IMG/VR virus record: IMGVR_UViG_2663763534_000001
From: a virus
Lineage: Duplodnaviria; Heunggongvirae; Uroviricota; Caudoviricetes
Length of the DNA stretch: 30,585 nt
Reading direction: 5' to 3' (one strand)
How positions within the stretch are numbered: the first letter of the stretch is position 1; every line of letters begins with the position of its first letter. The notes below the pieces were generated by a model. It was not told where the DNA came from. It did not search any database and saw only the letters and a list, made by a program, of their open reading frames with translations. Position numbers and translations under genes: made by a program. Positions 1-30,386 of the stretch are shown piece by piece.

Positions 1-28
1 CGTATAATGGGGAATTATGTGCTGATTT
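1..28. other. Telomere half-site: candidate hairpin end of a linear plasmid-prophage (half of the protelomerase target palindrome)
   Basis: Window begins cgtataatgg..tgtgctgat, which resembles from memory the right half of the N15 telRL palindrome (GCGTATAATGG....TGTGCTGATA). It lies 190 bp upstream of telN. The partner half is not in the window, as expected if the sequence starts at a hairpin apex. Confidence 0.5.
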
Positions 29-157
29 TTAGAACAAAGTCAAGGAACAAATTTTAACGTTCCGATATTGTGTTTTTGTTTATTATCCGTCATTATGTTC
101 TGTTAGTTTGTGGCTAAGTTAACGCGTTATTAGTTATCTTATTCTCAAATTGTGTTA

Positions 158-180
158 CGATAATCAGAGCTGATAATCAG
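158..180 (+). promoter_or_regulatory. Direct repeats GATAATCAG x2 (158..167, 171..180) just upstream of the telN RBS; candidate tos-type flanking repeat or operator
   Basis: Two 9-10 bp direct repeats 13 bp apart, ending 10 nt before the telN start. gctgat also occurs in the telomere half-site. Confidence 0.3.
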
Positions 181-190
181 GAGAGGAAAG

Positions 191-4125: not shown

Positions 4126-4317
4126 TTACTCCCCGTTCACCGAAAATTCACGATAGAAACGTTTCCACATACGATAAGTCTGCGCAAATTGTTCACCACG
4201 AAACATCGCCTTCCTGGCCTTCATGTTTTCCTTGTGAGACTTTCGGTCTATGAACCAAAACCATTGCTGGAACACACAAAGCAAGAGACACAAAGATAAT
4301 ATCCACTCATTACCCAT
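4126..4317 (-). CDS. Hypothetical small membrane protein (63 aa)
   Basis: ATG 8 nt inside the repA 3 prime end. Hydrophobic N-terminus LSLCLLLCVFQQWFWF followed by a basic tail. Weak RBS. Confidence 0.3.
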   Translation of the reverse strand: MGNEWILSLCLLLCVFQQWFWFIDRKSHKENMKARKAMFRGEQFAQTYRMWKRFYREFSVNGE

Positions 4318-7300: not shown

Positions 7301-8305
7301 GGCAGATTTCCGGTCATTATCCAGTGCGCAGGTGATTTTTGCCGCCGGGTACATGTTTACCAGTTGTTCCACAACATGAACCATGTTGTTAGCGGATACA
7401 GCGACAACCACAGCGTCAAAGCGTTTATCTTTTTTCGTGGCAAGCCAGATGGATGCACCAGTAGCAAAACCTTCTGTAACAGCGATGTTTTGCGCCCCTT
7501 TCAGCTCACCGATAACAAAGCAGGCACCGACGAAATCACCGCTGGTTACTGCGCTGGTCTGGTATTTCCCACCTTGTTTGTCGATTCGCTGCCAACCCAC
7601 AATACGACCATCATAACGACCGTCTAGGTGAGCCAGAGGGATAGCCATATATGTGGTTGGCCCCCGGCTCCATTTCGCACTGTCGTGACTGGTCACGCGA
7701 CGCACATCACATGAACTAAAAACGTCACGAATACCTTTTTTAATCGCATATGGCCATGAGCCGTCTTCAGCCTGAGCATGTTCCCACGCGCTGTGGAATG
7801 CCAGCCATCCCAGCAAACGTTCATGGTCCATTTGGTTGTTTTTCAGGTCATTAATTCGTTTTTGTTCTTCACGGCGACGACGTGCTTCGGCCTGACGTTC
7901 TATTCTTTCCCGTTCTTCTTCTGGTTGTGCGACCACGGTCGCATTATTCCGTTGTTGCTCACGGCGATATTCAGAAAACAGGAAGGAGAAACCGCTCCAT
8001 GAGCCAGCATCGCTGCCTTTATGGACGAAGTTAATGAACGGGTAATCAATCCCTTTGCTGTGTTCCAGCCTGGAGTAAATTTCTACGCGTCCTTTCAGGC
8101 TCTTTTCGAGAGCTTCTGGAGATGTTTTATTGTATGAAGAGTAACGCTCAACCCCCCCGCGAGGGTTGAGTTGGATGTTGTCGGAACAGGCAGGCCAGTT
8201 GATACCAGCCATCTGTGCCAGCTCGGTTAGTTCATCCCGTGCTGCTTCAATTAGCGAGAACGGATCGCTGCCAAAGCGATCCGCATAGAAATCGTTTAAT
8301 GTCAT
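4310..8305 (-). CDS. repA: Multifunctional replication protein RepA (primase plus helicase), N15 RepA-like
   Basis: 1331-aa ORF with a Walker A motif (VRAGMGSGKST). Size and position (between the telN side and cB) match N15 repA. Confidence 0.88.
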   Translation of the reverse strand: MTLNDFYADRFGSDPFSLIEAARDELTELAQMAGINWPACSDNIQLNPRGGVERYSSYNKTSPEALEKSLKGRVEIYSRLEHSKGIDYPFINFVHKGSDAGSWSGFSFLFSEYRREQQRNNATVVAQPEEERERIERQAEARRRREEQKRINDLKNNQMDHERLLGWLAFHSAWEHAQAEDGSWPYAIKKGIRDVFSSCDVRRVTSHDSAKWSRGPTTYMAIPLAHLDGRYDGRIVGWQRIDKQGGKYQTSAVTSGDFVGACFVIGELKGAQNIAVTEGFATGASIWLATKKDKRFDAVVVAVSANNMVHVVEQLVNMYPAAKITCALDNDRKSATEGKGNTGLRTGYEILSKFNDVRCVYPTFEDDPQMECSDFNDLHKLRGLRETARQLFATANRLKTGTDLLSLTLNRLKTIKRDNRRTFAKELLRAVDIGMLTCPVPNSPSDLFNMFCIVLREMGLENIYRATVKDHIARRLNKKCRIAQAPRSFSERITDPNKRPQHITYKRFETSVMTDDVLKYVQSLQGIVIVRAGMGSGKSTGLLRPLMHSSERGISVAHRVSLIGGLWEMMTEGKGVKADILHYQDPGYQEMAPYASKLTICINSIVKNCWQPLMRQHDYFGFDEATQGLRAVLSGRAMENPVAVFNTLIDALARTEQHPIMVDADANDLLVDLAELAMKRREELGLPAWLQIHVIELPVDVRNRETGEPIRVFYTEKDRIMTEVVKAVSDGEKIMLATDSSTFAEDVTATLRMHFPGKKFLCVNQKNKPEPEVEAFTNQPKKMVKKYDGLIYSPSISSGVSIEQKHFDRHFGMFCGEVVPSDAVQMLRRDRTAKEFIIGFDKARAKRETDPQKIERAFAQALLATAGMNGELTDVVFDGDRISMGVANTDFTRMKIKAAAIEATARNDYASNMICIMHSDGYKVSPLATDYAANDIGKDLRKEARDIVWEQTLDLHLNTETPQESEREELLKKRALTLEEQAKLVRWDIENELKLPVEEGTLKFYFDGARDKVRRYETMLLDEVTARRYDREEAAINFTYAYRQAGQWQYFVVTAMTREQADDVFKTKFPGIIDHKVKATPTVEVGARGFYALKSATLRQYFIDCGINPETMTGEATQERLKFARDNLMTAERRDLLNNVLHIGGFMTPKGKPKVPEALFKNICDSLGLKTGKRRGRDGDKRPTLRFVEPESAAFMLDILVQRQKDGLTLKTRKAEKTAIEMDRDLDLNIYMDDKTRSTNEQVQNAPHSVISEALAVLPVAVPESWAMSALSSEELATMSSWSSASIAMTFASLYLTEFMDHLSSNELRRLREYITGNSSCSYEEQGAFYG
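4591..4641. other. Candidate replication origin element inside the 3 prime end of repA
   Basis: 9-bp inverted repeat tggatcgcg / cgcgatcca flanking an AT-rich spacer containing (AT)5, with several GATC sites. N15 ori is reported to lie in the 3 prime part of repA. Confidence 0.3.
7685..7698. repeat. Palindrome CGTGAC-TG-GTCACG (GTGAC-N2-GTCAC family) inside repA
   Basis: Perfect 6-2-6 inverted repeat sharing its core with the sites at 3001 and 12939. Confidence 0.45.
7928..7943. other. sopC-like centromere palindrome TGCGACC-AC-GGTCGCA (copy 1, inside repA)
   Basis: Perfect 7-2-7 palindrome with the same architecture as the F sopC SopB-binding repeat (TGGGACC-AC-GGTCCCA). Five copies in the window. 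Confidence 0.6.
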
Positions 8306-8353
8306 TTTTTAGCCATTCCATGCGAATTATGTTTTTTCGGGTTGAAAAAATCC

Positions 8354-8421
8354 GCAGGAGCAGCCACAATAAACGCATCTTGAATTGACGGAATCCGTCG
8401 CGTTACTGTGGCTGCTTCCTG
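8354..8421 (-). terminator. Long imperfect hairpin followed (minus strand) by a T6 run in the repA leader; candidate attenuator
   Basis: Arms gcaggagcagccacaat / ttactgtggctgcttcctg with a ~32-nt loop. Plus-strand aaaaaa at 8345..8350 gives a U-run after the stem on the repA transcript. Lies ~40 nt upstream of the repA start. Confidence 0.35.
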
Positions 8422-8428
8422 AAAAGGA

Positions 8429-8456
8429 CCCGAGTTTGCCGACTCGGGTTTTTTTT
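8429..8456. terminator. Rho-independent terminator between cB and repA
   Basis: Stem cccgagt/actcggg with 6-nt loop, followed by T8 on the plus strand and tccttttc on the minus strand. Confidence 0.6.
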
Positions 8457-8550
8457 CGTCTTTTTTCTGCTGCTGTAACCTGAGTCAACCCACAGAACAT
8501 ATGCCCTGCATTAAACCAGATTTACAGCAAACAATAAACCCCGTATTAAG

Positions 8551-9147
8551 TCATCTACCCTCAACCATGAATGATTTGATCGTTCCGACTATTTGGTGAA
8601 CAAATTCAAGATCGCTTTTCCTGAAGATGGCGCGTTGTGAGTTTGTTCCATCCAGATAGTAATTTTCATCATCAAAACGGGCCAGGCGCTGGATAGTGAT
8701 ATTTCCTGCAGTATCACGAACCAGAACATCCTCGCCGGGGACCAGTTCCAGCGCAGAATCGACCAGGAGAAAATCGCCTGGCTGATAGTTTCCCTGCGTA
8801 AGATTGCTGATAGTTAACGCATACACAGTATTGCGCTGGCTGATGAATGGCAGGAATCGCTCAGTATTTGGAACCTGTCCCGGCTTCCACTCTTCATCCG
8901 GCCCACTTTCAGTTGTGCCAATAACAGGAATGCGATCAGGGTCATATTCTGTCCCATATAGCACCCAATGCACTGGCTTGCGTAAGCACTTAGCCAGGGC
9001 AATACCTATCTCCAGTGACGGCATTACGTCGCCACGTTCTAAGTTTTGGACGCCTGCTATAGAGATATCGACAGCCTCAGCAACTTCTCGCAACGTCAGC
9101 TTCATCTCTAAACGGCGTGCTTTCAGTCGTTCGCCTCGTGTTTTCAT
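8551..9147 (-). CDS. cB: Prophage repressor, CI/CB-like (HTH XRE N-domain plus LexA/CI-like C-domain)
   Basis: 198-aa ORF with N-terminal HTH (LTLREVAEAVDISIAGVQNLERG) and a CI-like C-terminal fold. Divergent from the cro-like gene across an operator-bearing intergenic region. Confidence 0.8.
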   Translation of the reverse strand: MKTRGERLKARRLEMKLTLREVAEAVDISIAGVQNLERGDVMPSLEIGIALAKCLRKPVHWVLYGTEYDPDRIPVIGTTESGPDEEWKPGQVPNTERFLPFISQRNTVYALTISNLTQGNYQPGDFLLVDSALELVPGEDVLVRDTAGNITIQRLARFDDENYYLDGTNSQRAIFRKSDLEFVHQIVGTIKSFMVEGR

Positions 9148-9169
9148 ACTGTAATCATAAATGATCTTC

Positions 9170-9185
9170 TTATAGCTGGCTATAA
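9170..9185. promoter_or_regulatory. Operator palindrome TTATAGC-TG-GCTATAA (candidate CB/Cro operator, OR site 1)
   Basis: Perfect 7-2-7 inverted repeat in the 91-bp cB-cro intergenic region. Confidence 0.6.
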
Positions 9186-9193
9186 AATTTATT

Positions 9194-9211
9194 TATTATA
9201 GCTGGCTTTAA
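9194..9211. promoter_or_regulatory. Second operator (imperfect copy: ttatagctggcttta) overlapping a TATAAT-like box
   Basis: Repeat of the ttatagctggc half-site 26 bp downstream of site 1. tataat hexamer at 9226..9231. Confidence 0.45.
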
Positions 9212-9238
9212 TTGTTGTTTATTGTTTATAATAACAAC

Positions 9239-9460
9239 ATGAAACCAGAAGAACTTATTCGCCATTTTGGCAGTGTAGAAAAAGCAGCGGCAGGGGTAGG
9301 TGTAACACCCGGAGCTGTTTACCAATGGTTAACCGCTGGAGAGATTCCTTCATTGCGGCAAAGCGATATTGAAGTTCGTACTGCTTATAAGCTGAAGAGT
9401 GACTTTACAACTCGGCGGGTAAAGCAGTCGATTAAGGAGAGTCGTAAGCGTGGAGCTTGA
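9239..9460 (+). CDS. cro: Cro-like HTH regulator
   Basis: 73-aa ORF divergent from cB with an HTH segment (GSVEKAAAGVGVTPGAVYQWLTAGE). ATG at 9239 preferred over the TTG at 9212 given in the ORF track; RBS is weak. Confidence 0.65.
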   Translation: MKPEELIRHFGSVEKAAAGVGVTPGAVYQWLTAGEIPSLRQSDIEVRTAYKLKSDFTTRRVKQSIKESRKRGA

Positions 9461-10160
9461 GTATATACGCAGCTGCGTCTCTACGGCATTGGCTGATGTT
9501 CATTATCGCCAGCGTGGCATTCTGGAGGTCCAGCTTGAGCAGATGCGTCTCGGTAGATCAGGACGGTTTAACAATAAACCAGTCCGGTCAATCAGTGTGG
9601 GGGATGATAACTCATACGAAGTGTCCGTTCCTGCTGAGCCGGTTAGATTCCATCAGGGGAAAACATTTAAACAATCATCAATGTTGCTCACTGATATTGA
9701 TTTTCAGAGCGCCAGCTGGCGCAGGGCTATTGGTCAGTTGAATAACGAGGAATCAGCCTGGCTTTATTATTGCTACGGATGCAAGCCTGATTACAACAAT
9801 GATGTGATTGTTTGTCAGTGGTTATGGCTTGATTTTCTGGTTGCTCATTCGGGGGGCGGCTTTAAAAAAATGAAGGCCTCCACGAAAAAAGCCATGCGGA
9901 AATTGATTTATTACGCGGCACAACAGGTTAAATCAGAACTTACGTGTGCTGAGGCAGTTGATGAGAGAGAACAGGACAGGCATCTGAGTTTTCTACTGAA
10001 TATATCTATTGATAGCTGGAGACAAGATTATAAAGAACGCTGGCTTTTAATTAAGTCGCGATGTCTGAGCTTAAATCGAACCGCATTATTAAATGCGGCG
10101 GAGAAGCGCAGTGAAATCATCAAACGCCATCGGGCAGGAAGTGCCATTCTGCCTTTGTAA
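9450..10160 (+). CDS. Putative late-gene regulator (Q-like antiterminator candidate by position)
   Basis: 236-aa ORF overlapping the cro stop, in the position of N15 Q (cB-cro-Q). No motif confidently recognised; call is by synteny. Confidence 0.35.
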   Translation: MELEYIRSCVSTALADVHYRQRGILEVQLEQMRLGRSGRFNNKPVRSISVGDDNSYEVSVPAEPVRFHQGKTFKQSSMLLTDIDFQSASWRRAIGQLNNEESAWLYYCYGCKPDYNNDVIVCQWLWLDFLVAHSGGGFKKMKASTKKAMRKLIYYAAQQVKSELTCAEAVDEREQDRHLSFLLNISIDSWRQDYKERWLLIKSRCLSLNRTALLNAAEKRSEIIKRHRAGSAILPL

Positions 10161-10413
10161 ACAAGTTATGTTCAGGAAACCGTCGAAGCCAGAATTAAGG
10201 TATTCGGGGGTAAGAAATGAATATGTTATTTGGTGTCCAACTTGTGGTTACAGGACACGACCAGATAGTAATAAGCAGTCTGTAATTGCCGATTGGTATT
10301 TATCAAATCAGCCAGGTAATAAGCATATAGAAAATCTTTGGATTAAGCGTTACTTGGAAATCAGAGGGGGTGCGACCGTGGTCGCACAAGAAAATGAAAA
10401 TAACGCCATTTAA
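10093..10413 (+). CDS. Zinc-ribbon protein, possibly Lar-family (restriction alleviation); start uncertain
   Basis: Contains C.C...WCPTCG Cys pairs typical of small phage zinc ribbons. 5 prime end overlaps the Q-like gene. A sopC-like site lies in its 3 prime end. Confidence 0.3.
   Translation: MRRRSAVKSSNAIGQEVPFCLCKQVMFRKPSKPELRYSGVRNEYVIWCPTCGYRTRPDSNKQSVIADWYLSNQPGNKHIENLWIKRYLEIRGGATVVAQENENNAI
10371..10386. other. sopC-like centromere palindrome TGCGACC-GT-GGTCGCA (copy 2)
   Basis: Perfect 7-2-7 palindrome identical to the other copies apart from centre orientation. Confidence 0.6.
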
Positions 10414-10423
10414 GCAGGGGCCG

Positions 10424-10597
10424 ATGACGCATGATGAAGCAGAGCGTCTTTCAGATACTTATCGGCGGCGTGGTAAGAAAGTTCTGGTTGTTCGTTCTGA
10501 TTTTTTAGGTGATGGATATTGCGTTTATGTTCATTTACCTGAATCAGAAAGAACGCCAAAACCATCCAGAACATATCAACAGAAAATTTGGGTATAG
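10424..10597 (+). CDS. Hypothetical small protein (57 aa)
   Basis: ORF following the zinc-ribbon gene. Start chosen at the ATG after the upstream stop; weak RBS. Confidence 0.25.
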   Translation: MTHDEAERLSDTYRRRGKKVLVVRSDFLGDGYCVYVHLPESERTPKPSRTYQQKIWV

Positions 10598-10620
10598 ATA
10601 AACGTTGAGGAGAATTATTC

Positions 10621-11220
10621 GTGACTAATCAGATTATTTACGACAGGAAACGGTCTGATGTAATGATTGACCTTGAAACAATGGGTACTAACACATGTGC
10701 TCCAATTGTTTCTATCGGGGCAGTGTTTTTTTCTCCAGAAAGTGAGGAATTAGGTCCTACTTTTTATGTGCCAGTGAATCTCAGAAGCTCGATGTTGAAT
10801 GGTGGTATCGCCGATGGTGATACCATTTTATGGTGGTTGAAACAGAGCAAGGAAGCCAGAGCCGCTATTTGTACTAATGATGCCCTTGATATTAAGGATG
10901 CACTTTTTGAATTATCACACTTTATTACTTGCCATGCATGTAATTTAAAAAAGTTGAAAGTATGGGGAAATGGAGCAACGTTCGATAATGTAATTTTACG
11001 CGGTGCTTATGAGCGCGTTGGCTTAGCCTGTCCGTGGGAATATTTTAATGATCAGGATGTTCGAACAATCGTTAATCTTGGTCAGTTTATTGGTTTTAAT
11101 CCTAAAAAAGATATGCCATTTGATGGCGAACGACACAATGCCCTGGCTGATGCTATTCATCAGGCTAAATATGTATCCGCAATTTTCTCCCGTCTTGTAA
11201 AAGGGCAAGGAGAATCGTAA
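10621..11220 (+). CDS. DnaQ-like (DEDD) 3 prime-5 prime exonuclease
   Basis: GTG start after RBS gaggag. N-terminal motif MIDLETMGT resembles the Exo I motif (D.E) of DnaQ/RNase T-like exonucleases, with a conserved HNALADA-like motif near the C-terminus. Confidence 0.6.
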   Translation: MTNQIIYDRKRSDVMIDLETMGTNTCAPIVSIGAVFFSPESEELGPTFYVPVNLRSSMLNGGIADGDTILWWLKQSKEARAAICTNDALDIKDALFELSHFITCHACNLKKLKVWGNGATFDNVILRGAYERVGLACPWEYFNDQDVRTIVNLGQFIGFNPKKDMPFDGERHNALADAIHQAKYVSAIFSRLVKGQGES

Positions 11221-11639
11221 TGGCAAAGGCTTTTACACCAGAACAGAGGGAAGAACTGAATAAACAAATTGTGGAACTCGTGCGCCTGAATGGACGAGGA
11301 ACGGTTAGGCAACTTGCGGATGAAACTGGTATTAGCCGGTGTGCTGTTAGTCGTTTATCAAGAGAGCTTGCTGCCAGTGGTGATTTGTATATCTCTGGCT
11401 CCGGGATATTTCTGTCTGCACAAGCACGCAAGGACTGGCAAAACGCCCGTAAAAAACTATCAAGAGTAAAGCCGAAGAAATCGGTAGTTGTTGATCCTGA
11501 CCTTATCTGGTCATTACCTGATGGAGAAATACGTCGTTATGACAGGCGCTTGAACATGATTTGTCACGATTGTCGGAAGAGCGAAGTTATGCAGCGTGTG
11601 TTGGCGTTTTATCAGGGAAATTTTCAGGAGGTGGCGTAG
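11220..11639 (+). CDS. Hypothetical HTH/winged-helix protein (139 aa)
   Basis: ATG overlaps the exonuclease stop. HTH-like segment VRQLADETGISRCAVSRLSREL. Confidence 0.5.
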   Translation: MAKAFTPEQREELNKQIVELVRLNGRGTVRQLADETGISRCAVSRLSRELAASGDLYISGSGIFLSAQARKDWQNARKKLSRVKPKKSVVVDPDLIWSLPDGEIRRYDRRLNMICHDCRKSEVMQRVLAFYQGNFQEVA

Positions 11640-11925
11640 TGAATATCGACACCACGATAACGATCGATACGGCCCTAAATACCGGTCTGGCACTTCTCGG
11701 TTGGTTTTACATCATGTTCAGTGCGGGGAAGTGAGCGGCCTCTGTTTTTCTAAAGCAGTGGGGAAAGCGCCGCAAACAGGAAAAACGCCAGAAAGCGTTG
11801 GAGGCGTTCTATGACGCATTTGAACTTAGCCGCATTGAGCCAGGCACAACAGCCAAGATAGCGACAAAAGGCGACCTGATGATAGTGATGTTCCGACAGG
11901 AGAGAGCAGAGAAAGGTGAATCAGC

Positions 11926-12600
11926 ATGAAATTTTCTAAATTTTCTGAGTTGGTGAATCGTATTTTGTTGAATCGTATTTTGTCCAACAACCACAGCGAT
12001 CGTCGCGATATGGATGTAACGATCGTTGTTCATTCGCCTGGCAGCATTGGTTCAACACCTTCAGTTGAGGTTCAGTCAATTCACGCTGGTTTTGATTGGG
12101 ATTCCGGGAAAGTGCTGATTTTCCCAGCACAGCCACTGACCACGCTAACACCAGAACAGATTACTGATATCACGGATAGTGTGCGCAAAGGTCAGTCTTG
12201 GCACGCATATCAGGAATACAAGAAGCATAAAGAGCAGTTGGAAAAATTGTCGATTGAGTTGGAATCAGCCAAAAATCACATAGCAGAACTGGAAGCCAAA
12301 CCTGTAAGCCAAACTTACAAGTTAACTTTTGAGCAATGGCTGGAACAGCAGCATGACAAAATTGATGTTGATTGTGGATGTGTAAGTACAGAAATGCTTA
12401 TGCACTGGATAAGGGTCGCGTATGAGGCTGGCAACTCTCCGGTAACTCCGGATGGTCATATTCAGTTTTCTGTTTCACTTCCTGCAGCATGTGGTGGAGA
12501 TAAATATTTTATTGATGGTGTATTTCAACCTTTGAGATATGAGCGTGACTGTGAAAAAGCGGTTGTGGCCGCTGGCGGTGTAGTTAATTGGGTTAAGTAA
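11926..12600 (+). CDS. Hypothetical protein (224 aa)
   Basis: ORF with RBS aaaggtg. Contains a coiled-coil-like segment (KHKEQLEKLSIELESAKNHIAELEA). Confidence 0.5.
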   Translation: MKFSKFSELVNRILLNRILSNNHSDRRDMDVTIVVHSPGSIGSTPSVEVQSIHAGFDWDSGKVLIFPAQPLTTLTPEQITDITDSVRKGQSWHAYQEYKKHKEQLEKLSIELESAKNHIAELEAKPVSQTYKLTFEQWLEQQHDKIDVDCGCVSTEMLMHWIRVAYEAGNSPVTPDGHIQFSVSLPAACGGDKYFIDGVFQPLRYERDCEKAVVAAGGVVNWVK

Positions 12601-12615
12601 TTTTCAGGAGGATTT

Positions 12616-12942
12616 ATGGCGCTGACAGCTGCAGAACGGCAAAGGAGACGCAGGGAACGGTTGAAGAAGGAAGGCACATCAAGACGGGACTGGATTCTGG
12701 AACCTGACGAGCTACGTATGTTGGGGGAAATTTGTGTATTGCGTAGACCGGGACGAGTTCCATATTCAGAGAATGAAGTCATCGGTCTGCTGATCAGGAA
12801 AAACTATAAGGAGCTGCAGAAGCAGCTATCTACTACTTGCCCGCGATGTGGTCAGAAAATGCCTGTTTCAGAATGTATTTTTGATGGTGAAGGCTCATGT
12901 CACCTTACAACTACGAGGCTGAAACTTGTGCTCAAAGTGTGA
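12616..12942 (+). CDS. Hypothetical basic protein with C-terminal CPRCG zinc-ribbon-like motif (108 aa)
   Basis: ORF with RBS caggagg 6 nt upstream. Arg-rich N-terminus (AERQRRRRERLKKEG). Confidence 0.45.
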   Translation: MALTAAERQRRRRERLKKEGTSRRDWILEPDELRMLGEICVLRRPGRVPYSENEVIGLLIRKNYKELQKQLSTTCPRCGQKMPVSECIFDGEGSCHLTTTRLKLVLKV

Positions 12943-12950
12943 CTGGTCAC
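12939..12950. repeat. Palindrome GTGAC-TG-GTCAC (third copy of the GTGAC-N2-GTCAC family)
   Basis: 12-bp perfect palindrome overlapping the stop codon of the 108-aa gene. Confidence 0.4.
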
Positions 12951-13118
12951 GGAATGATAAATAAACAAAAAGGCATAGTTTTTGAAATGATGAGAAAACG
13001 AAGCGAAAAGAGTTTTTCTTATGGTGATGATGGGCTTCTGTAGGTGGTTGAGTGAGGCGTAGGAAGAGAACATAAGTATCGGACTACAAAGCTATTAACC
13101 CTGTTAATCCATTGAAAG

Positions 13119-13133
13119 TTGGCTATAAAATTT
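13119..13133 (+). promoter_or_regulatory. Promoter/operator-like element sharing 14 nt (TGGCTATAAAATTT) with the cB-cro operator region
   Basis: Exact 14-mer match to 9177..9190, including the operator half-site GCTATAA and a TATAAAAT box. Lies ~50 bp upstream of the 13184 ORF. Confidence 0.35.
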
Positions 13134-13183
13134 GAGTTTTACCCTGTAATTTTATACAGTATCAAATAACCTTTTTTAATTAA

Positions 13184-13402
13184 ATGGTATTAGATTCAAT
13201 GACTGAAGCATCTGTATCAACTCTTGAAGAACTCGGATCAAACCTAAAAGACATCGACGCCGTTTTGGATCTGGTTAGCGTTGCTCTGGCTTCTCCCGAA
13301 GCTAGCTTGCATCTTGGCGAGATTTCACGGCTTGTTAGTATGTCGCGGGAGATTGCTCAGAATTGCCAACAAGCGATTGCTGTGGAGTGTTTACATCATT
13401 GA
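13184..13402 (+). CDS. Hypothetical small acidic protein (72 aa)
   Basis: ORF in an AT-rich region downstream of the promoter-like element. Confidence 0.35.
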   Translation: MVLDSMTEASVSTLEELGSNLKDIDAVLDLVSVALASPEASLHLGEISRLVSMSREIAQNCQQAIAVECLHH

Positions 13403-13406
13403 TACA

Positions 13407-13430
13407 CACCCCGCCCTTCTGGACGGGGTG
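13407..13430. terminator. Hairpin between convergent genes (candidate bidirectional terminator)
   Basis: 7-bp GC-rich stem caccccg/cggggtg with 10-nt loop. U-tracts are weak on both strands. Confidence 0.3.
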
Positions 13431-13445
13431 GTGAAAAGTGATTAA

Positions 13446-13733
13446 TCAATAGACGGCATTAATATTAATTGTTGCGCCACATGCTTGGGCATATTTTGAT
13501 AAAGTTTTCATGCTTGCCCCTAAAGGATTGCTTTCCAGGCGGCTGATGGCGGACGGGCGCAATCCCATTCGTTCTGCCAGAGCTGACTTCGTTAAACCTG
13601 CTCTTTCCCTCATTTCGTATAACATTTCGACCATCTCCAGTTCTTTATCGGCCTCTTCATATCCTTTGATAGCTTCTGGAGTGTTGAGTAGTTTTTCCTT
13701 TACTTCGTTAAACGGGATGCCTTTTGCTTTCAT
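13446..13733 (-). CDS. HTH XRE-family antitoxin (HigA-like)
   Basis: 95-aa ORF with HTH (LTKSALAERMGLRPSAISRLE). Start overlaps the toxin stop (ATGA) and it lies downstream of the toxin, i.e. HigBA-type order. Confidence 0.7.
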   Translation of the reverse strand: MKAKGIPFNEVKEKLLNTPEAIKGYEEADKELEMVEMLYEMRERAGLTKSALAERMGLRPSAISRLESNPLGASMKTLSKYAQACGATININAVY

Positions 13734-14044
13734 CAGTTCATCTCCTTCAGGCGAGTTCTGGCGATTTCTATAGCCTTTACTGGTGTTTTCTGTGTCTTTT
13801 TTACAAATGCATGCAATAGATAAATTTCGTTACCAGTCGCGTAGGCGTATAGCGTTCTTGCGATGTTTTTATCCCCTACTCTTAGTTCAAAGAGTCCTCC
13901 GCCTATTACACGGCTATGGGGCATCTTAAGTTTGTTTCCCTCTTTCTCCAGTCGTTCAATTAGCCTGGTCATGCGACCTCGCAGATCGTCTGGTAGTTCA
14001 AGCAGTTCATCCAGTGCTGCAGGGTGGGTTATCACGTTAAACAT
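13733..14044 (-). CDS. RelE/HigB-superfamily toxin of the phage Gp49-like family
   Basis: ATG at 14044 with RBS ggagg. 103-aa protein (MFNVITHPAALDEL...YLLHAFVKKTQKTP) typical of Gp49-like/HigB toxins. Coupled to the downstream HTH antitoxin. Confidence 0.7.
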   Translation of the reverse strand: MFNVITHPAALDELLELPDDLRGRMTRLIERLEKEGNKLKMPHSRVIGGGLFELRVGDKNIARTLYAYATGNEIYLLHAFVKKTQKTPVKAIEIARTRLKEMN

Positions 14045-14102
14045 ATTATAGCCTCCTAACGCGCAAAATACACCAAAACGAGAAAACAAAGCAAATATAA
14101 AA

Positions 14103-14120
14103 TTTCACTAAAAAGTGAAA
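14103..14120. promoter_or_regulatory. Inverted repeat TTTCAC-N6-GTGAAA in the toxin-antitoxin promoter region (candidate autoregulatory operator)
   Basis: 6-bp arms around taaaaa, ~60 bp upstream of the toxin start, in the divergent intergenic region. Confidence 0.4.
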
Positions 14121-14207
14121 ATAACACTGGATGTGTTCTTTTGGCAGAGTTACAGTTCGTGTTGTTGAGGGGGATAACCCACTAACTATATGAATTTCGA
14201 GGATATT

Positions 14208-14429
14208 ATGAATTATCAAGGTAACGAAAAAATGCGCGGCGACGTTGCGGAGATAGCTAACGAATTGTATGAGTTGTGGCAGAAGGTTGAACGTTTCGAA
14301 AAGGAATATGGTTTCAACAGTACCAACCTGACAGACCGACTGGCTGGCCGCTTAATTGGGACTATGGGGCCAAAACTGGCTGAGTTGAACCGCTTTATGG
14401 CTGATGTTGATTTCCAGTTTCAAGATTGA
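14208..14429 (+). CDS. Hypothetical protein (73 aa)
   Basis: ATG at 14208 with RBS gagg 5 nt upstream. The ORF track gives an earlier ATG at 14190. Confidence 0.4.
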   Translation: MNYQGNEKMRGDVAEIANELYELWQKVERFEKEYGFNSTNLTDRLAGRLIGTMGPKLAELNRFMADVDFQFQD

Positions 14430-14442
14430 TTAGAGAGGCGTT

Positions 14443-14670
14443 ATGAATATTAATGAAATTCGTGGAAATATGACCGAAGCGGCCCTGAGTGTGGAATGTG
14501 TTATGCGTGGATATCCACGCATTTCCTTGAAAGAGTTAAGCGAAGCCTGTTTTTTGAGTCAGGCTGCCGTTGAATTTATCATCGAACAGATGATCTGTTT
14601 TGGGGTTGCAAAGCGTAGCGGGTCTGGTCGATATTCTTTGACCGATGAATATAAGCAGGCAACTTTCTAA
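14443..14670 (+). CDS. Hypothetical protein (75 aa)
   Basis: ORF with RBS gagagg. Followed immediately by a sopC-like site and a terminator. Confidence 0.45.
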   Translation: MNINEIRGNMTEAALSVECVMRGYPRISLKELSEACFLSQAAVEFIIEQMICFGVAKRSGSGRYSLTDEYKQATF

Positions 14671-14673
14671 AAA

Positions 14674-14695
14674 CTGTGCGACCACGGTCGCACAG
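14674..14695. other. sopC-like centromere palindrome (copy 3), extended 22-bp form CTGTGCGACC-AC-GGTCGCACAG
   Basis: Perfect 10-2-10 palindrome; core TGCGACCACGGTCGCA at 14677..14692. Confidence 0.6.
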
Positions 14696-14779
14696 CACAA
14701 AAACGAAAAAGCTTGGCAAAATGACGGTTTTTAGTTATTGTTTTGTTAAGTTGGGTTTTTTGTACCCAATAGCCAACAA

Positions 14780-14802
14780 GCCGCCTTTATGGCGGTTTTT
14801 TT
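14780..14802 (+). terminator. Rho-independent terminator
   Basis: Stem gccgcc/ggcggt with loop tttat, followed by T7. Confidence 0.6.
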
Positions 14803-14937
14803 GTGCCTGAAAAGTGGGCGCAGGACAAGTTGCAGCTTGTCCTGCGGTCAACCCATGCCAGAGCTATAGGCTGAACCTAAAGCCCACCCGCGATGCGCAT
14901 CGCTGGGTTAGCTTACCCAGGCAAAAAAATAATAGCT

Positions 14938-16014
14938 ATGTTCAAAACCACTAATATTCATGGCGCACAACTCGTTTGCGCAGATTCTCTGCAATTTATC
15001 AAAACCATCCCTGATAACTCGGTCAATTTGATTGCAACAGACCCACCATACTTCGGCGTAAAGGCTAACGCATGGGATAACCAGTGGGATAGCGATGCTG
15101 ACTTTTTGGGGTGGATTGACGAATTTTTGGCAGAATTTTGGCGGATATTGGCCCCTAATGGCAGCCTGTATATGTTTACCGGCTCTCGCCTTGCGTCAAA
15201 AATTGAATTATTAACTCGCGACCGTTTCAATGTTCTGAACCATATCATTTGGGCTAAACCCAGTGGTATGTGGCGCGGTTGTCATAAAGAAAGTTTAAGG
15301 GCTTATTTTCCTGCTACTGAAAGAATATTATTTGCAGAGCATTACGGCGCGTCAGGTTATGCTAAAGGTCAGTCAGGTTATGCTTCAAAATGTGCAGATT
15401 TAAGAAAAAATATTTTTTCTCCACTAATTGATGCTTTTTCGCTGGCTCGCCGTCAGTTAGATATATCAGCCGCAGACATTAATTCAGCGACAGGAAAGCA
15501 GATGTGTTCACACTGGTTTTCTTATTCGCAGTGGCGGCTTCCATCATTAATTGATTTTAATAAAATATGCGAATTATTTCGCAGGAAGGCAGATTCACTC
15601 GGTGTCCCGTGTCCATATCCTTTTAATGTTGATTATTCAGAACATGAAAAGCGTTATAGCGATCTGAAATTGCATTATGAGGAAGTAAAGAAGCAGTATG
15701 ATGATTTGAAGGCTCAGTATGAAAGTTTACGCCGTCCATTTCATGTTACTGCTGATGTACCTTATACCGATGTATGGGAGTTTCCTCCTGTGCAATATTA
15801 TCCTGGCAAGCACCCATGTGAAAAACCTGCAGCGATGATGGAACATATTATAAAGAGTAGTTCACGCCCCGGAGATATCGTTGCCGATTTCTTTATGGGA
15901 TCAGGCTCAACTATTAAAGCTGCGCTGAAGTTAGGACGTCAGGCAATAGGTATTGAGATTGAGGGCGAGCGTTATCTTCAGACAGTTGATGAAGTGAAAA
16001 AGTTATTTGAGTAA
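14938..16014 (+). CDS. Orphan DNA methyltransferase (N6-adenine or N4-cytosine; DPPY motif IV before FxGxG motif I)
   Basis: Catalytic DPPY (IATDPPYFG) near the N-terminus and the SAM-binding motif FFMGSGST near the C-terminus. No restriction endonuclease gene is adjacent. Start could be 14893 or 14938. Confidence 0.7.
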   Translation: MFKTTNIHGAQLVCADSLQFIKTIPDNSVNLIATDPPYFGVKANAWDNQWDSDADFLGWIDEFLAEFWRILAPNGSLYMFTGSRLASKIELLTRDRFNVLNHIIWAKPSGMWRGCHKESLRAYFPATERILFAEHYGASGYAKGQSGYASKCADLRKNIFSPLIDAFSLARRQLDISAADINSATGKQMCSHWFSYSQWRLPSLIDFNKICELFRRKADSLGVPCPYPFNVDYSEHEKRYSDLKLHYEEVKKQYDDLKAQYESLRRPFHVTADVPYTDVWEFPPVQYYPGKHPCEKPAAMMEHIIKSSSRPGDIVADFFMGSGSTIKAALKLGRQAIGIEIEGERYLQTVDEVKKLFE

Positions 16015-16028
16015 CTGGAGAATATATT

Positions 16029-16057
16029 CCCCTGCCGTTTTTGGTAGGGGTTATTTT
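16029..16057 (+). terminator. Rho-independent terminator after the methyltransferase gene
   Basis: Stem cccctgcc/ggtagggg with loop gttttt, followed by ttatttt. Confidence 0.5.
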
Positions 16058-16109
16058 CACCATATAGTTTCCAAGCCGAAACCTCAGCAACTATTGCGAG
16101 GTAAGAGAT

Positions 16110-16382
16110 ATGAAGATGGATGAACGATACAGCAGTGCATCTTATGGTAGCGCTGGTCTTGCTGCGTTCTTTGCCAGCCTGTCATTGCAGGATTGGGGCT
16201 TCATTATCGGTGTCGCGTTCAGCATTATCCTCGGTGTGCTTACATACCGGCTCAATAAACGCGAGCAGATGAAGCGCACGAAGATATTGCAGGACATATT
16301 GGATAAAACTAATACCAATAATCTTTCTGCTACAGCGATGGTTATTGGAGAGCTGGGGAAGAGAGCACCGAAGGAAATATGA
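16110..16382 (+). CDS. Holin (class II / pinholin-like, dual-start motif)
   Basis: 90-aa protein starting MKM (dual-start motif), with two hydrophobic segments ([27 protein letters not shown]) and a charged C-terminus. Sits directly upstream of the endolysin with an ATGA overlap. Confidence 0.75.
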
Positions 16383-16879
16383 TGCAGTCATCATTACGCA
16401 AAGCTGTCACAGCTGCTATTGGTGGCGGGGCTATTGCCATAGCGTCTATGCTCATCACTGGCCCAAGTGGTAACGATGGTCTGGAAGGTGTCAGTTACAT
16501 ACCATACAAAGATATTGTTGGCGTATGGACTGTATGTTACGGGCACACTGGAAAAGACATCATGCTCGGTAAAACGTATACCGAAGCAGAATGCAAAGCT
16601 CTCCTGAATAAAGACCTTGCCACTGTTGCCAGACAAATTAATCCGTACATCAAAGTCGATATACCGGAAACAACGCGCGGCGCTCTTTACTCGTTCGTTT
16701 ACAACGTGGGCGCTGGTAATTTCAGAACATCGACGCTTCTTCGCAAAATAAACCAGGGCGATATCAAAGGCGCATGTGATCAGCTACGTCGCTGGATATA
16801 TGCTGGCGGTAAGCAATGGAAAGGCCTGATGACTCGTCGTGAGATTGAGCGTGAAGTCTGTTTGTGGGGTCAACAATGA
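16379..16879 (+). CDS. SAR endolysin (T4-type lysozyme, GH24) with N-terminal signal-anchor-release domain
   Basis: Gly/Ala-rich N-terminal SAR segment ([20 protein letters not shown]) and catalytic E-x8-D-x5-T triad ([17 protein letters not shown]). Confidence 0.8.
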
Positions 16880-17343
16880 GCAGGGTAACCGCGATTATCT
16901 CCGCTCTGGTTATCGGCATCATCGTCTGCTTGTCGTGGGCTGTTAATCATTACCGTGATAACGCCATCGCCTACAAAGAGCAGCGCGACAAAAACGCCAG
17001 AGAGCTGAAGCAGGCGACCGCCACCATTACTGACATGCAGCAGCGCCAGCGTGCTGCTGATGCACTCGATGCTAAATACACGAAGGAGTTAGCCAATGCG
17101 AAAGCTGAAAATGATGCTCTTCGGCGTAAGCTTGATAATGGTGGTCGGGTGCTCGTCAAAGGAAAATGCCCTGTGCCAGCCTCAGCCAAAACCTCCAGCG
17201 CCTCCGGCATGGGCAATGATGCCACCGTCGAACTCTCTTCAGTTGCTGGACGAAACGTTCTCGGTATCCGGGACGGAATTATCCGCGACCAAACAGCACT
17301 GAGAACGCTTCAGGAATACATCAATACGCAATGCCTGAATTAA
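16876..17343 (+). CDS. Rz: i-spanin Rz
   Basis: ATGA overlap with the endolysin. N-terminal TM segment, coiled-coil region, and an embedded Rz1 ORF. Confidence 0.75.
17096..17302 (+). CDS. Rz1: o-spanin Rz1 (lipoprotein), embedded in the +1 frame of Rz
   Basis: RBS ggag. Lipobox LIMVVGC-SS followed by a Pro-rich segment ([16 protein letters not shown]). Wholly inside Rz. Confidence 0.7.
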
Positions 17344-17384
17344 TCCCTCTGTATCAAAAACGAACTCAATTTGTTGGATAGTGA

Positions 17385-17696
17385 ATGAAAATTTATATTG
17401 CCGGGCCAATGACGGGATATGAGAACTTTAATCGTGACGCCTTTAATAAAGAGGCAGATCGTTTGTCACGACATGGTCACTCTGTCTTGAATCCAGCCAC
17501 TTTGCCTAATGGTCTGACACAACGTGAATACATGGATATTTGCTTTGCAATGCTTCGTTGTGCGGATGCTATTTTGATGCTTCCTGGCTGGAAAGCGTCT
17601 GCTGGAGCAACTGCTGAGTATCATTACGCATACAAGATGGAGATGCCGGTATTCACTACGCTGAATTACCCGCCAGCTTGTTCCTCTGCAGTATAA
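17385..17696 (+). CDS. Nucleoside 2-deoxyribosyltransferase-like / DUF4406-family protein
   Basis: 103-aa protein beginning MKIYIAGPMTG, a motif I associate with this family. Confidence 0.45.
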   Translation: MKIYIAGPMTGYENFNRDAFNKEADRLSRHGHSVLNPATLPNGLTQREYMDICFAMLRCADAILMLPGWKASAGATAEYHYAYKMEMPVFTTLNYPPACSSAV

Positions 17697-17743
17697 AAAT
17701 CTCTTTGTTTCTCGTGTGCGATCGTGGTCGCTCGCTAAATTCC

Positions 17744-17954
17744 GCGCTGCATCGTCGCCGTATTCCCGCATTAACTATGACCGTAGCCCGACGGGGAACT
17801 CCTCTGCGCGAGTGTGCGGAAATAATCAAAAACGATGCACACCGGGTTTTTACCGCGCTAATGATTCGCGGGTTTGTCCCTCATGCTCGCTAGTCCTGTG
17901 CGAGGGTGGAAGAAACAGGGCATGTATTCAGGAGCGTGCGACCGTGGTCGCACG
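17744..17954 (+). repeat. Direct repeat copy A (~211 bp, ~95 percent identical to copy B) ending in a sopC-like site
   Basis: Aligns base for base with 19528..19738 with about 10 substitutions. Contains a sopC-like palindrome at its 3 prime end. Confidence 0.8.
17937..17952. other. sopC-like centromere palindrome (copy 4)
   Basis: TGCGACC-GT-GGTCGCA within repeat copy A, 25 bp upstream of the cassette gene start. Confidence 0.6.
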
Positions 17955-17976
17955 GTATCTTTGTCAGGAGGTTTTG

Positions 17977-18837
17977 ATGAAAGAGTTGCAAAAAATTAAT
18001 TCAATAATGGAACGATTAATTGCTCTTGAGCTTAAGCTGGCCGATTGCGGAAAACTGTGTGCTGAAAAGCAAAATGAGCTTTACCGGGAATTTGTTACAA
18101 TCGTAAGTGAGCTGATGCCAATTGTTAATAACTGCCTAATGACATCCAGATTTTTTAATGTCGATGCTACTACATCCAGAAAATTTACTGTGAAAATTCA
18201 AGAAAGAGTTTCTGGTAGTGTGACAAGAGAGATGGCTGAACAGTTTGTGGCAATGAGTAATAAAACAAAAAGAAAAAAGGCATTGCTTGTAACAGTAAAT
18301 CAGCTTTCAGGGCGCGTTGACTTTCAGGTCAGACAGGGTGGGCGTGTACTGGTAAACGATGCGTTCGTTGGACGTTGCTTTAGTCCTTACTCGATGAAAT
18401 ATGATGTTGATGCAGATGATCAGGATATCAGCATTTCCTGGAAATCTGAGACAGCAGGGATTGTATTAACAGCAGAGTTGTTGAGTGATGATAAAAATGA
18501 TGGCCAGCATCATTTGGACGAAAAAAATCATATTTCTGAAATTTGTATGAAGCCACGTAGTGGAATGACTTTATTGTCGCGAACTCTTGCTGCTGGCTTT
18601 TCTGCAACGGAGAAACGTGTGCTTCTGGTAGTGCCTGAAGATGCAGATATTCGTCCACTGAATGGCTGTGATGTTATTAGTGCAAAAACATTGCATACCC
18701 GCATCATGCCTGTACCGGATGTGGTCATCATTGATGATATTGAGAAATGCAAGTCTGTTTCCTCAACTGCCACAATCAAACGAATTTTACGTTGTAGCAC
18801 GTCGGCTGTTGTATTCCAGAAGCAGTTACATAACTAA
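17977..18837 (+). CDS. Hypothetical protein (286 aa), first gene of a low-GC two-gene cassette; no family recognised
   Basis: ATG at 17977 with strong RBS caggagg. The longer ORF-track version (from 17716) runs through the repeat element and is unlikely. Coding sequence is AT-rich compared with the flanking lambda-like genes. Confidence 0.55.
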   Translation: MKELQKINSIMERLIALELKLADCGKLCAEKQNELYREFVTIVSELMPIVNNCLMTSRFFNVDATTSRKFTVKIQERVSGSVTREMAEQFVAMSNKTKRKKALLVTVNQLSGRVDFQVRQGGRVLVNDAFVGRCFSPYSMKYDVDADDQDISISWKSETAGIVLTAELLSDDKNDGQHHLDEKNHISEICMKPRSGMTLLSRTLAAGFSATEKRVLLVVPEDADIRPLNGCDVISAKTLHTRIMPVPDVVIIDDIEKCKSVSSTATIKRILRCSTSAVVFQKQLHN

Positions 18838-18961
18838 CCAGTTTTGTTTTGCAGAACATCCTCAACTAAAAGCTTATAGAAAGAGAGCCTGAGATATTTT
18901 TTTTCTGTCTCTCGTAGTTGTTTATTTTTTCGAACAGGCTTACAACTTACAGGATATATAC

Positions 18962-19411
18962 ATGCAAGAAGAAGCAAAGAAAATTCTTGTTGATTTATTG
19001 AACAATGCCAGCGATGGAATTGATTCCGCCATTGCATTCAGTCAGGCTCAGATTCCGGATGTTGTTCATCAGTTGCTGGTATGGAATATAGTTGATAGTC
19101 TGATTAAAACATTAATAGCCATTTCAACAATCCCGCTGGTTATTTGGTTTATGAAGAAACAGTGCAAAAAAGTTGAAATTGGTAAGTTCGATAATGACGG
19201 ACGCTCATGTGATAATGGACAGCCTAAATACAAACCGACTATGATTTGGGAAAGTGACGGTAGGTTAAGTGCTTTTGTCTTACCATTAGTAGCAGTTTTT
19301 ATTCTATGGTTAAGTTTTATTATTTCTATAGTAGCCAATATGACATGGTTAAAAATCTGGCTGGCACCTAAGTTATATCTAATCGAATACGCAGCATCAC
19401 TAATTAAATAG
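18962..19411 (+). CDS. Hypothetical integral membrane protein (149 aa, 2-3 predicted TM helices)
   Basis: Hydrophobic segments (LIKTLIAISTIPLVIWFM, AFVLPLVAVFILWLSFIISIVA). AT-rich. Weak RBS. Confidence 0.5.
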   Translation: MQEEAKKILVDLLNNASDGIDSAIAFSQAQIPDVVHQLLVWNIVDSLIKTLIAISTIPLVIWFMKKQCKKVEIGKFDNDGRSCDNGQPKYKPTMIWESDGRLSAFVLPLVAVFILWLSFIISIVANMTWLKIWLAPKLYLIEYAASLIK

Positions 19412-19527
19412 CCCATTACAAAAGCCATTCGCTACTGAGTGGCTTTGATAATGGCTTATACCCTACACGGGATAACTTAACTAATATCCCTTTTAACGGA
19501 TAAAGGTATTCAAGCCTGACACATTAT

Positions 19528-19738
19528 GCGCTGCATCGTCGCCGTATTTCCGCATTAACTATGACCGTAGCCTGACGGGGAACTCCTCTGCGCGAGTGTG
19601 TGGAAATAATCAAAAACGATGCATACCGGGTTTTTACAGCGCTAATGATTCGCGGGTTTGTCCCCCATGCTCGCCAGCTCTGTGCGGGGGTGGAAGAAAC
19701 AGGGCATGTATTCAGGAGCGTGCGACCGTGGTCGCACG
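19528..19738 (+). repeat. Direct repeat copy B (~211 bp) ending in a sopC-like site
   Basis: Partner of 17744..17954. Lies ~80 bp upstream of cos. Confidence 0.8.
19721..19736. other. sopC-like centromere palindrome (copy 5)
   Basis: TGCGACC-GT-GGTCGCA within repeat copy B. Confidence 0.6.
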
Positions 19739-19819: not shown

Positions 19820-19831
19820 GGGCGGAAGGCG
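19820..19831 (+). other. cosN-like cohesive-end site (variant of the lambda GGGCGGCGACCT)
   Basis: Flanks match the lambda cos region as I recall it (caggctacg | gggcggaaggcg | cgcgggttttcgctatttatgaaaattttccggtttaaggcg). The 12-nt core differs from canonical lambda at about 5 positions. Confidence 0.55.
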
Positions 19832-30259: not shown

Positions 30260-30386
30260 ATGAAGTTANNNNNNNNNNNNNNNNNNNNNNNNNNNNNNNN
30301 NNNNNNNNNNNNNNNNNNNNNNNNNNNNNNNNNNNNNNNNNNNNNNNNNNNNNNNNNNNNNNNNNNNNNNNNNNNNNNNNNNNNNN
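30260..30386. other. Assembly gap (127 N)
   Basis: Run of n characters. Removes the T 3 prime end and the H 5 prime end. Confidence 0.99.

Follow-up and report, generated by a model that had tools for sequence, protein, structure and literature searches.

Dispersed palindromes on the telN-side arm of an N15-like linear phage-plasmid are very probably SopB-type centromere sites

The viral record IMGVR_UViG_2663763534_000001 (Caudoviricetes), a stretch of 30,585 nucleotides (nt) that we analysed over its full length and refer to as the window, makes up the telN-side arm of a linear plasmid-prophage that is N15-like and has virion genes resembling those of lambda. Here we show that the window contains five perfect copies and one degenerate copy of a palindromic 16-mer, dispersed over the replication and late-control region. 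We consider it very probable that these palindromes serve as parS-like centromere sites for an N15-type SopABC partition system (type Ia). This view is supported by several lines of sequence evidence: the identity of the core with the inverted repeats (IRs) of N15, the synteny of the sites, the selective conservation of the palindrome arms, the covariation of the site with the type of SopB, and the presence of cognate sopAB genes in complete relatives. SopB binding, partition activity and a regulatory effect in this particular element are what we infer on this basis.

Sequence, number and positions of the palindromes

A pattern search of the window with TGCGACCNNGGTCGCA (TGCGACC-NN-GGTCGCA) yielded five exact matches, at 7928-7943, 10371-10386, 14677-14692, 17937-17952 and 19721-19736, the same number and positions as an earlier note on this DNA had given. 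The note had also claimed that a 16-mer of this kind is not to be expected by chance, and this holds: the expected count is 0.00, and none of 100 dinucleotide-preserving shuffles contained any match. Furthermore, an unbiased scan for all palindromes of the 7-2-7 type found no other that recurs in the window. The description of the repeat as a perfect 16-bp palindrome, on the other hand, is correct for the two perfect 7-bp arms but not for the spacer, which is AC at 7928 and 14677 and GT at 10371, 17937 and 19721 and is not self-complementary; the five copies are a single 16-mer in two orientations. Four of them extend to a palindrome of 18-20 bp, (C)G-TGCGACC-NN-GGTCGCA-C(G). When up to three mismatches were allowed, a degenerate sixth copy, TGCGATCGTGGTCGCT, was found at 17717-17732 (two mismatches), together with a three-mismatch match at 8931 that is at chance level. 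The perfect copies are found at distances of 7.9-19.7 kb from the telomere and are spaced 1.8-4.3 kb apart, the degenerate copy is located 220 bp from its neighbour, and the repeat analysis reported no 43-bp periodic array in the window. The sites and the features next to them are as follows (ORF, open reading frame; aa, amino acids).

4310-8305, minus strand: replication gene repA (1331 aa), with the IR1-type site inside it
7928-7943: IR1-type site, TGCGACCACGGTCGCA, at about codons 121-126 of repA; coding strand GCG ACC GTG GTC GCA, read as A-T-V-V-A
10093-10413, plus strand: zinc-ribbon ORF (C-x-C ... CPTC), whose tail includes the IR2-type site, read as G-A-T-V-V-A-Q
10371-10386: IR2-type site, within the 3' tail of the zinc-ribbon (Lar-like) ORF and 211 nt beyond the stop codon of Q
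14677-14692: IR3-type site; the stop codon of the gp51 homologue lies 7 nt before it, and the -35 of the late promoter follows 20 nt downstream
14713-14741, plus strand: late promoter (TTGGCA, 17 nt, TATTGT), aligned to the annotated N15 -35/-10
14778-14798, plus strand: terminator downstream of the late promoter, aligned to the annotated N15 terminator
17717-17732: degenerate copy, directly 3' of the DUF4406 gene
17739-17954, plus strand: copy 1 of the 216-nt direct repeat, duplicated from the lambdoid segment by cos
17937-17952: extra perfect copy, at the 3' end of direct-repeat copy 1
19523-19738, plus strand: 216-nt direct repeat, copy 2, in the native position by cos
19721-19736: extra perfect copy that closes direct-repeat copy 2 at its 3' end; the cohesive-end sequence follows after 84 nt

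The earlier note was also right in placing one copy inside repA, one inside the zinc-ribbon ORF and two in direct repeats.

Besides the shuffles, we used lambda, the structural-gene arms of seven replicons and unrelated viral stretches as controls for specificity. No copy with up to two mismatches is present in lambda, and none was found in the structural-gene arms of the seven N15-like replicons examined. In a scan of viral contigs the pattern occurred in 120 stretches. The 37 N15-like stretches among these hold 70 sites (19 of the 37 have at least two), and the remaining 83 are unrelated and have one site each, as chance predicts. Of 5426 complete E. coli genomes, 18 contain the element itself; all its occurrences are on plasmid records and none is chromosomal, which implies that it needs active partition.

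Correspondence with the partition sites of N15 and the putative sites of phiKO2

The closest known systems are those of N15 and phiKO2. N15 (NC_001901) has copies of the core at 33480 (in repA), 35931 (after Q), 41125 (after gene 51) and 45562 (after gene 58), and the core of the window is identical to N15 IR2, IR3 and IR4 and shows one mismatch to IR1 as given in the GenBank record. The IR1 of that record reads AGCGACCACGGTCGCA, and the published IR1 oligonucleotide is the perfect TGCGACCACGGTCGCA (PMC7205306, Table 4). The sequences of IR1-IR4 were printed in that table by the Lane laboratory as "N15 centromere" oligonucleotides, and N15 SopB was found to form foci on an array of IR1-IR4 (PMC7205306). 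In the same study F SopB was reported to be non-functional with the N15 IRs, and N15 SopB to be more relaxed and able to use sopC (PMC7205306).

In the Klebsiella phage phiKO2 (NC_005857; Casjens et al. 2004), four sites are annotated as "putative plasmid partitioning sites". All four have the sequence GTGCGACCACGGTCGCA(C/T): one lies in repA, one follows Q, one separates gp51 from the putative late promoter, and the last comes immediately after gp58, which is of the DUF4406 type. The window copies at 7928, 10371, 14677 and 17717 map one-to-one to these four positions.

The correspondence extends to the details of each site. Firstly, the IR1-type site, about 370 nt from the repA start, occupies the same codons as N15 IR1 (33480), the phiKO2 site at 37905-37922 and an F-type variant in PY54. 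Secondly, the IR2-type site is syntenic with N15 IR2 (35931) and with the phiKO2 site at 40345-40362. Thirdly, the arrangement around the IR3-type site recurs in N15, where IR3 (41125-41140) follows gene 51 and lies 22 nt before the annotated late -35 (41162), and in phiKO2, where the site is at 45384-45401 and the -35 of the late promoter at 45421; alignment of the 14677 region with N15 gives the common order stop codon, IR, AAAACGAAAAAG, TTGGCA (-35), -10, TAAGTTGGG, terminator. Finally, the phiKO2 site at 48618-48635 directly follows gp58, the homologue of the DUF4406 gene. The 17717 copy, which occupies this position in the window, is perfect in the relatives PhiR46_1 (17794), pEA26_5 (18942) and pZ1323HEC0355-3 (21073). 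From these comparisons the 17717 copy appears to be the ancestral fourth site, which has decayed, and the copies at 17937 and 19721 appear to be lineage-specific extras.

The element resembles N15 in the dispersed layout of the sites, which the earlier note had pointed out for N15, and in their gene-relative positions (shared with phiKO2); its complete relatives also resemble N15 in the location of sopAB far off at the other telomere and in the DNA-contact residues of SopB. It differs from N15 in having five perfect copies and one decayed copy, compared with four in N15; in its central dinucleotides, which are all AC/GT here and AC, TC, AT and AC in N15; and in that the ancestral fourth site is degenerate, while two extra copies are carried on a duplicated 216-nt lambdoid segment. 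phiKO2 encodes a SopB with the D-R-N-I recognition helix that is also found in the lineage of the window, but it has no duplicated copies by cos, its head genes are HK97-like, and it belongs to a different host genus.

Comparison with F sopC, PY54 and chromosomal parS

The palindromes had been described as F sopC-like. This is valid for their architecture: like the F sopC site, TGGGACCACGGTCCCA (PMC3597684), they are 7-2-7 inverted repeats, with an AC centre and 12 of the 14 arm bases the same, and the cognate proteins (SopB) are homologous ParBs of type Ia. A match to the structure PDB 3MKY (E = 5.8e-39) was obtained with the SopB of the lineage. The sequence, however, is N15-type. The F site, TGGGACC..GGTCCCA, has G/C where the window has C/G at positions 3 and 14, a symmetric difference that is found in all five copies, and F SopB has the helix S-R-K-I. 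Moreover, F sopC consists of 12 tandem 43-bp repeats adjoining sopB, whereas the sites of the window are dispersed. A search of the window with TGGGACCNNGGTCCCA found only the same five sites, each with two mismatches, and we rejected identity with F sopC.

The Yersinia phage PY54 is similar to the window in that its palindromes are present in multiple dispersed copies, two of which are located at homologous codons of repA and of the Lar-like ORF. It differs in that the palindromes are of the F type (TGGGACC-NN-GGTCCCA), with eight perfect copies plus variants, and in that the partition proteins are SpyAB, the SopB homologue having the helix S-R-K-I. Some of the F-type copies of PY54 lie in the structural-gene arm (508, 6566), and one copy with a single mismatch is located inside spyB (22251), so that the palindromes of PY54 are distributed more widely than those of N15-type elements. 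Chromosomal parS sites, tGTTNCACGTGNAACa, are also 16-bp inverted repeats that are present in several dispersed copies and are bound by a ParB with a helix-turn-helix (HTH) motif (PMC3597684), but their sequence is unrelated, they belong to another ParB subfamily, and they are clustered around oriC.

Conservation of the arms and covariation with SopB

In alignments of 12-17 unique homologous segments, the arms of the palindromes were 97.8-100% conserved, compared with 79-85% for the flanks. At the repA site the values are 97.8% and 84.9%, respectively, and variation at third codon positions occurs in the flanks but not inside the site. The arms of the post-Q site are invariant in 12 unique homologues, its central dinucleotide being variable, and those of the IR3-type site are invariant in 17. 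These alignments indicate that the arms are under selection at the DNA level.

The two sites that lie within coding sequences are particularly informative. At the same codons of repA, PY54 has TGGGACCACGGTCCCA, which is read as G-T-T-V-P, instead of the A-T-V-V-A of the window. Likewise, the tail of the zinc-ribbon ORF reads G-A-T-V-V-A-Q in the window, G-A-T-S-V-A-R in N15 and G-T-T-V-P-Q in PY54 ORF44. Because the arm changes are matched at the same codons of both genes, the palindrome has been kept at the expense of the protein sequence. This agrees with the statement in the earlier note that these coding sequences are constrained by the site: both arms switch together between the window and PY54, and the protein changes with them. 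The site is read in the same frame (A-T-V-V-A) in repA and in the zinc-ribbon ORF.

The zinc-ribbon ORF shares 68 nt with the 3' end of Q, in a different frame, and it matches the Pfam family Lar_restr_allev below threshold (E = 3.6e-4; 21.2 bits against a cut-off of 28.6). It is kept in N15 (35653-35973, unannotated) and in PY54 (ORF44, annotated as Lar-like). Most RefSeq relatives have no annotation for it; the source contig has it as a called gene.

The type of the site covaries with the type of the SopB recognition helix. The SopB proteins of N15, phiKO2 and five E. coli-lineage replicons have a D-R-N-I...R helix and the ELSAR motif, and their replicons carry TGCGACC; F SopB and its PY54 homologue have S-R-K-I...R, and their sites are TGGGACC. 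Residues 189-191, 195 and 219 of F SopB have been implicated in sopC recognition (PMC3597684). At these positions (F numbering), the N15-type contact residues D-R-N..R..R are present in the SopB of the relatives pAH01-1, PhiR46_1 and the E. fergusonii and E. albertii plasmids, and in that of phiKO2.

The sopAB genes of the relatives

A tblastn search of the whole window gave no match to SopA or SopB, as the earlier note had said. The note had expected the genes on the other arm, and this is where they are in the complete relatives: in all those examined, sopA and sopB adjoin the telomere half opposite telN (pAH01-1, PhiR46_1 and the E. fergusonii and E. albertii plasmids). The SopA of the lineage is 93% identical to N15 SopA.

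One of the closest records, the Shigella sonnei plasmid record NZ_CP061364.1, requires comment. It is listed in RefSeq as "circular, complete", yet comparison with pAH01-1 shows that its sequence breaks off in the side-tail-fibre gene; at the other end it begins 10 nt away from the telomere axis. The record represents a linear replicon from which about 4.5 kb, sopAB included, is missing through truncation of the assembly. The idea that the closest relative lacks sopAB was accordingly rejected, as this is no biological absence.

A model for partition and points that weigh against it

On the basis of these comparisons, the following model can be proposed. A SopB dimer, encoded by the opposite telomere of a linear prophage of ~46-48 kb, would bind each 16-bp inverted repeat, contacting the DNA with its HTH recognition helix (D-R-N-I..R) and with the arginine conserved in the ELSAR motif. 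The bound dimers would nucleate partition complexes, and the Walker ATPase SopA would position these complexes on the nucleoid, so that each daughter cell would receive a copy of the low-copy plasmid-prophage. For N15, Ravin and Lane are said to have reported in 1999 that SopB binds such sites and that a single site stabilises a plasmid when SopAB is supplied. An effect of SopB on late expression has reportedly been observed in N15 as well. By analogy, SopB at 10371 (just past Q) and at 14677 (near the late promoter) probably also modulates late transcription in this element. The earlier note had attributed such a role to the two copies in the direct repeats, but these are not so placed; the copy proximal to the late promoter is the one at 14677.

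Several observations count against a centromere function of the palindromes. Firstly, the window, in which tblastn detected no SopA or SopB homologue, is a whole contig of a draft assembly, and the complete-looking record NZ_CP061364.1 also lacks a SopA/SopB match, although its truncation makes this uninformative. Secondly, identity between the lineage's SopB and that of N15 is only 74-75%. Thirdly, the integrating lambdoid phage 2B8 (NC_049952) has no ParB but contains a single symmetric variant of the palindrome, TGCAACCGTGGTTGCA, by cos (48655-48670), which means that a single copy can exist without a partition function. Finally, the compensatory changes in the two arms are equally expected of a conserved hairpin. 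Phage 2B8 has an integrase and O/P replication genes, and the changes in its variant are mirror-image (G4>A, C13>T), as if the palindrome had been kept or repaired without a role in partition.

Direct repeats near cos and turnover of the copies

The segment that is duplicated in the window is common to 424 lambdoid phage records, and the two repeat copies are 94% identical. They bracket a cassette of ~1.57 kb that relatives either lack or have in a different form; it has two ORFs (17977-18837 and 18962-19411), and neither of these has a Pfam match. On its right-hand side the repeat ends within 2 nt of the palindrome, and copy 1 begins 7 nt after the degenerate 17717 copy. The cos-side palindrome rides on a stretch of ~29 nt that is absent from the same segment of the ordinary lambdoid Lambda_4C10 (about 790), and it is present in four of the six E. 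coli-lineage replicons. Centromere copies thus turn over and coincide with mosaic boundaries, which is an observation and not an established mechanism, and it suggests that the sites mark recombination or duplication junctions.

It is conceivable that the palindromes are mainly recombination junctions or module linkers, and that their multiplicity is a product of mosaic evolution, a possibility that is compatible with a centromere role. The repeat boundaries just described, the variable cassette between the repeats, and the 29-nt stretch missing from ordinary lambdoids, together with the variant in 2B8, would fit such a role. It would leave unexplained, however, the copies in repA and the Lar-like ORF, which are found at identical codons in phages sharing only about 55-75% protein identity, and it would not account for the covariation with SopB either; in addition, no dedicated recombinase is associated with the sites. 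We therefore regard it as an unlikely main function.

A more speculative, and in our opinion rather unlikely, extension combines several of these elements: SopB complexes at 10371 and 14677 might bridge Q and the late promoter to tune antitermination, the copy 84 nt upstream of cosN might couple or oppose partition-complex assembly and packaging, and the palindromes might serve as preferred junctions for cassette capture and duplication. The last of these roles would explain both the 216-nt repeats bracketing the two-ORF cassette and the decayed ancestral IR4. If all this were true, the phage-plasmid genome would be organised by centromere sites that are mobile and have several functions.

Other functions of the palindromes

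The remaining alternatives, namely a terminator, an operator and a methylation or restriction target, are much less likely than a centromere function. Thus, the palindromes could be transcription terminators, or other RNA or DNA hairpins conserved for their structure. The N15 record has a "putative rho-independent terminator" annotated over IR4 (45560-45584), the site at 17937 passes a simple terminator-like scan, and the arm changes between the N15 and PY54 types would preserve a hairpin. Yet a stem of 7 bp with a loop of 2 nt makes a poor terminator, a T-rich tail is present at only one of the five sites (17937, where it is weak), and the other four fail the scan. Furthermore, one site is antisense within repA and one is in the tail of an ORF, and both orientations occur. 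The actual late terminator is a separate hairpin (14778-14798), and Rfam gives no match at the sites, its only matches (C4 and isrK, 2758-2943) being far away. Most tellingly, the copies within one genome share one sequence and switch jointly between lineages with the SopB helix, which independent hairpins would not do. Conservation for hairpin structure is accordingly very improbable.

We give a similarly slight chance to the possibility that the palindromes are operators of another dimeric phage regulator, such as the winged-helix gp51 homologue, and act in regulation only. The gp51 homologue is encoded directly upstream of the 14677 site and has winged-HTH matches, albeit below threshold; its phiKO2 homologue is annotated as winged-helix, and two of the sites flank the Q/late-promoter control region. 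Nevertheless, the same sequences are used as the centromere of N15, and foci of N15 SopB have been seen on them (PMC7205306). Neither the fact that the site type follows the SopB recognition helix in F, PY54, N15 and phiKO2, nor the sharing of the architecture and of 12 of the 14 arm bases with the F SopB site, would be expected of such an operator. Finally, a role as the target of a phage-carried restriction-modification or methyltransferase system, brought to mind by the N6/N4 DNA methyltransferase gene (14893-16014) near one site, is extremely improbable, as the sites of known type II systems are far shorter than a specific target of 14 bases, restriction sites tend to be avoided in phages and not enriched, and the site is constant, and of a type that tracks SopB, while the methyltransferases of N15, phiKO2 and this element differ.

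Other features of the element

The window corresponds to the entire contig LFXU01000035.1 of the draft assembly GCA_001182885.1, as revealed by an exact-protein look-up of TelN. Its position 1 coincides with the axis of symmetry of the telRL palindrome (CCATTATACGCG/CGTATAATGG, also written …CCATTATACGCG/CGTATAATGGGG…, the slash marking the axis), so the window starts at the hairpin telomere. The closest records are NZ_CP061364.1 (99.5%) and E. coli pAH01-1 (99.2%); PhiR46_1, in which telL and telR are annotated, is 96% identical across the maintenance arm, and N15 itself is not among the near-identity matches of the window. The terminase, head and tail genes are ~96% identical to those of lambda at the DNA level. 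The other features of the window are listed below.

1-2104, plus strand: hairpin telomere half-site and telN (telN at 191-2104)
8551-9147, minus strand: cB repressor homologue
in the window: cro
9450-10160: Q
in the window: a RelE/antitoxin pair
14443-14670: gp51 homologue, with sub-threshold winged-HTH matches
14893-16014: N6/N4 DNA methyltransferase gene
16110-17343: lysis genes
17385-17696: DUF4406 gene
19820-19831, plus strand: cosN cohesive-end equivalent, GGGCGGAAGGCG, aligned with the lambda genome ends

The late promoter and the terminator that follows it (14713-14798) are the presumed target of antitermination by Q. On the minus strand at 2758-2943, beside icd-like and Bro/antirepressor genes, the Rfam matches are to C4 antisense RNA (73.6 bits) and isrK (62.5 bits); this neighbourhood is a P1/N15-type secondary immunity (antirepressor control) region. 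A run of 118 Ns at 30269-30386, near the junction between the tail-assembly and tape-measure genes, is a masked stretch or a scaffold gap. In addition, the metagenomic ENA contig k119_112912 (16202-20363) contains two head-to-head telN genes with mirrored flanks, and it represents either an assembler read-through of the hairpin telomere or a captured replicated telomere junction.

Significance for N15-like phage-plasmids

The phenomenon of dispersed partition sites is already known from the work on N15 and phiKO2, of which the present element is a further case, and our results leave the current understanding of partition unchanged. They indicate that widespread linear phage-plasmids of E. coli and Shigella, in which a maintenance arm of the N15 type is joined to virion genes of the lambda type, have preserved the N15 mode of partition to the base: in place of a centromere array, it relies on a small number of single SopB sites dispersed over the replication and late-control region. 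The extra copy on the cos side and the decayed ancestral site illustrate the turnover of centromere copies. The 16-mer is, moreover, a specific marker that can be used to annotate N15-like replicons and to join fragmented contigs, and the two pairs of site and helix, TGCGACC with D-R-N-I and TGGGACC with S-R-K-I, constitute a natural specificity switch.

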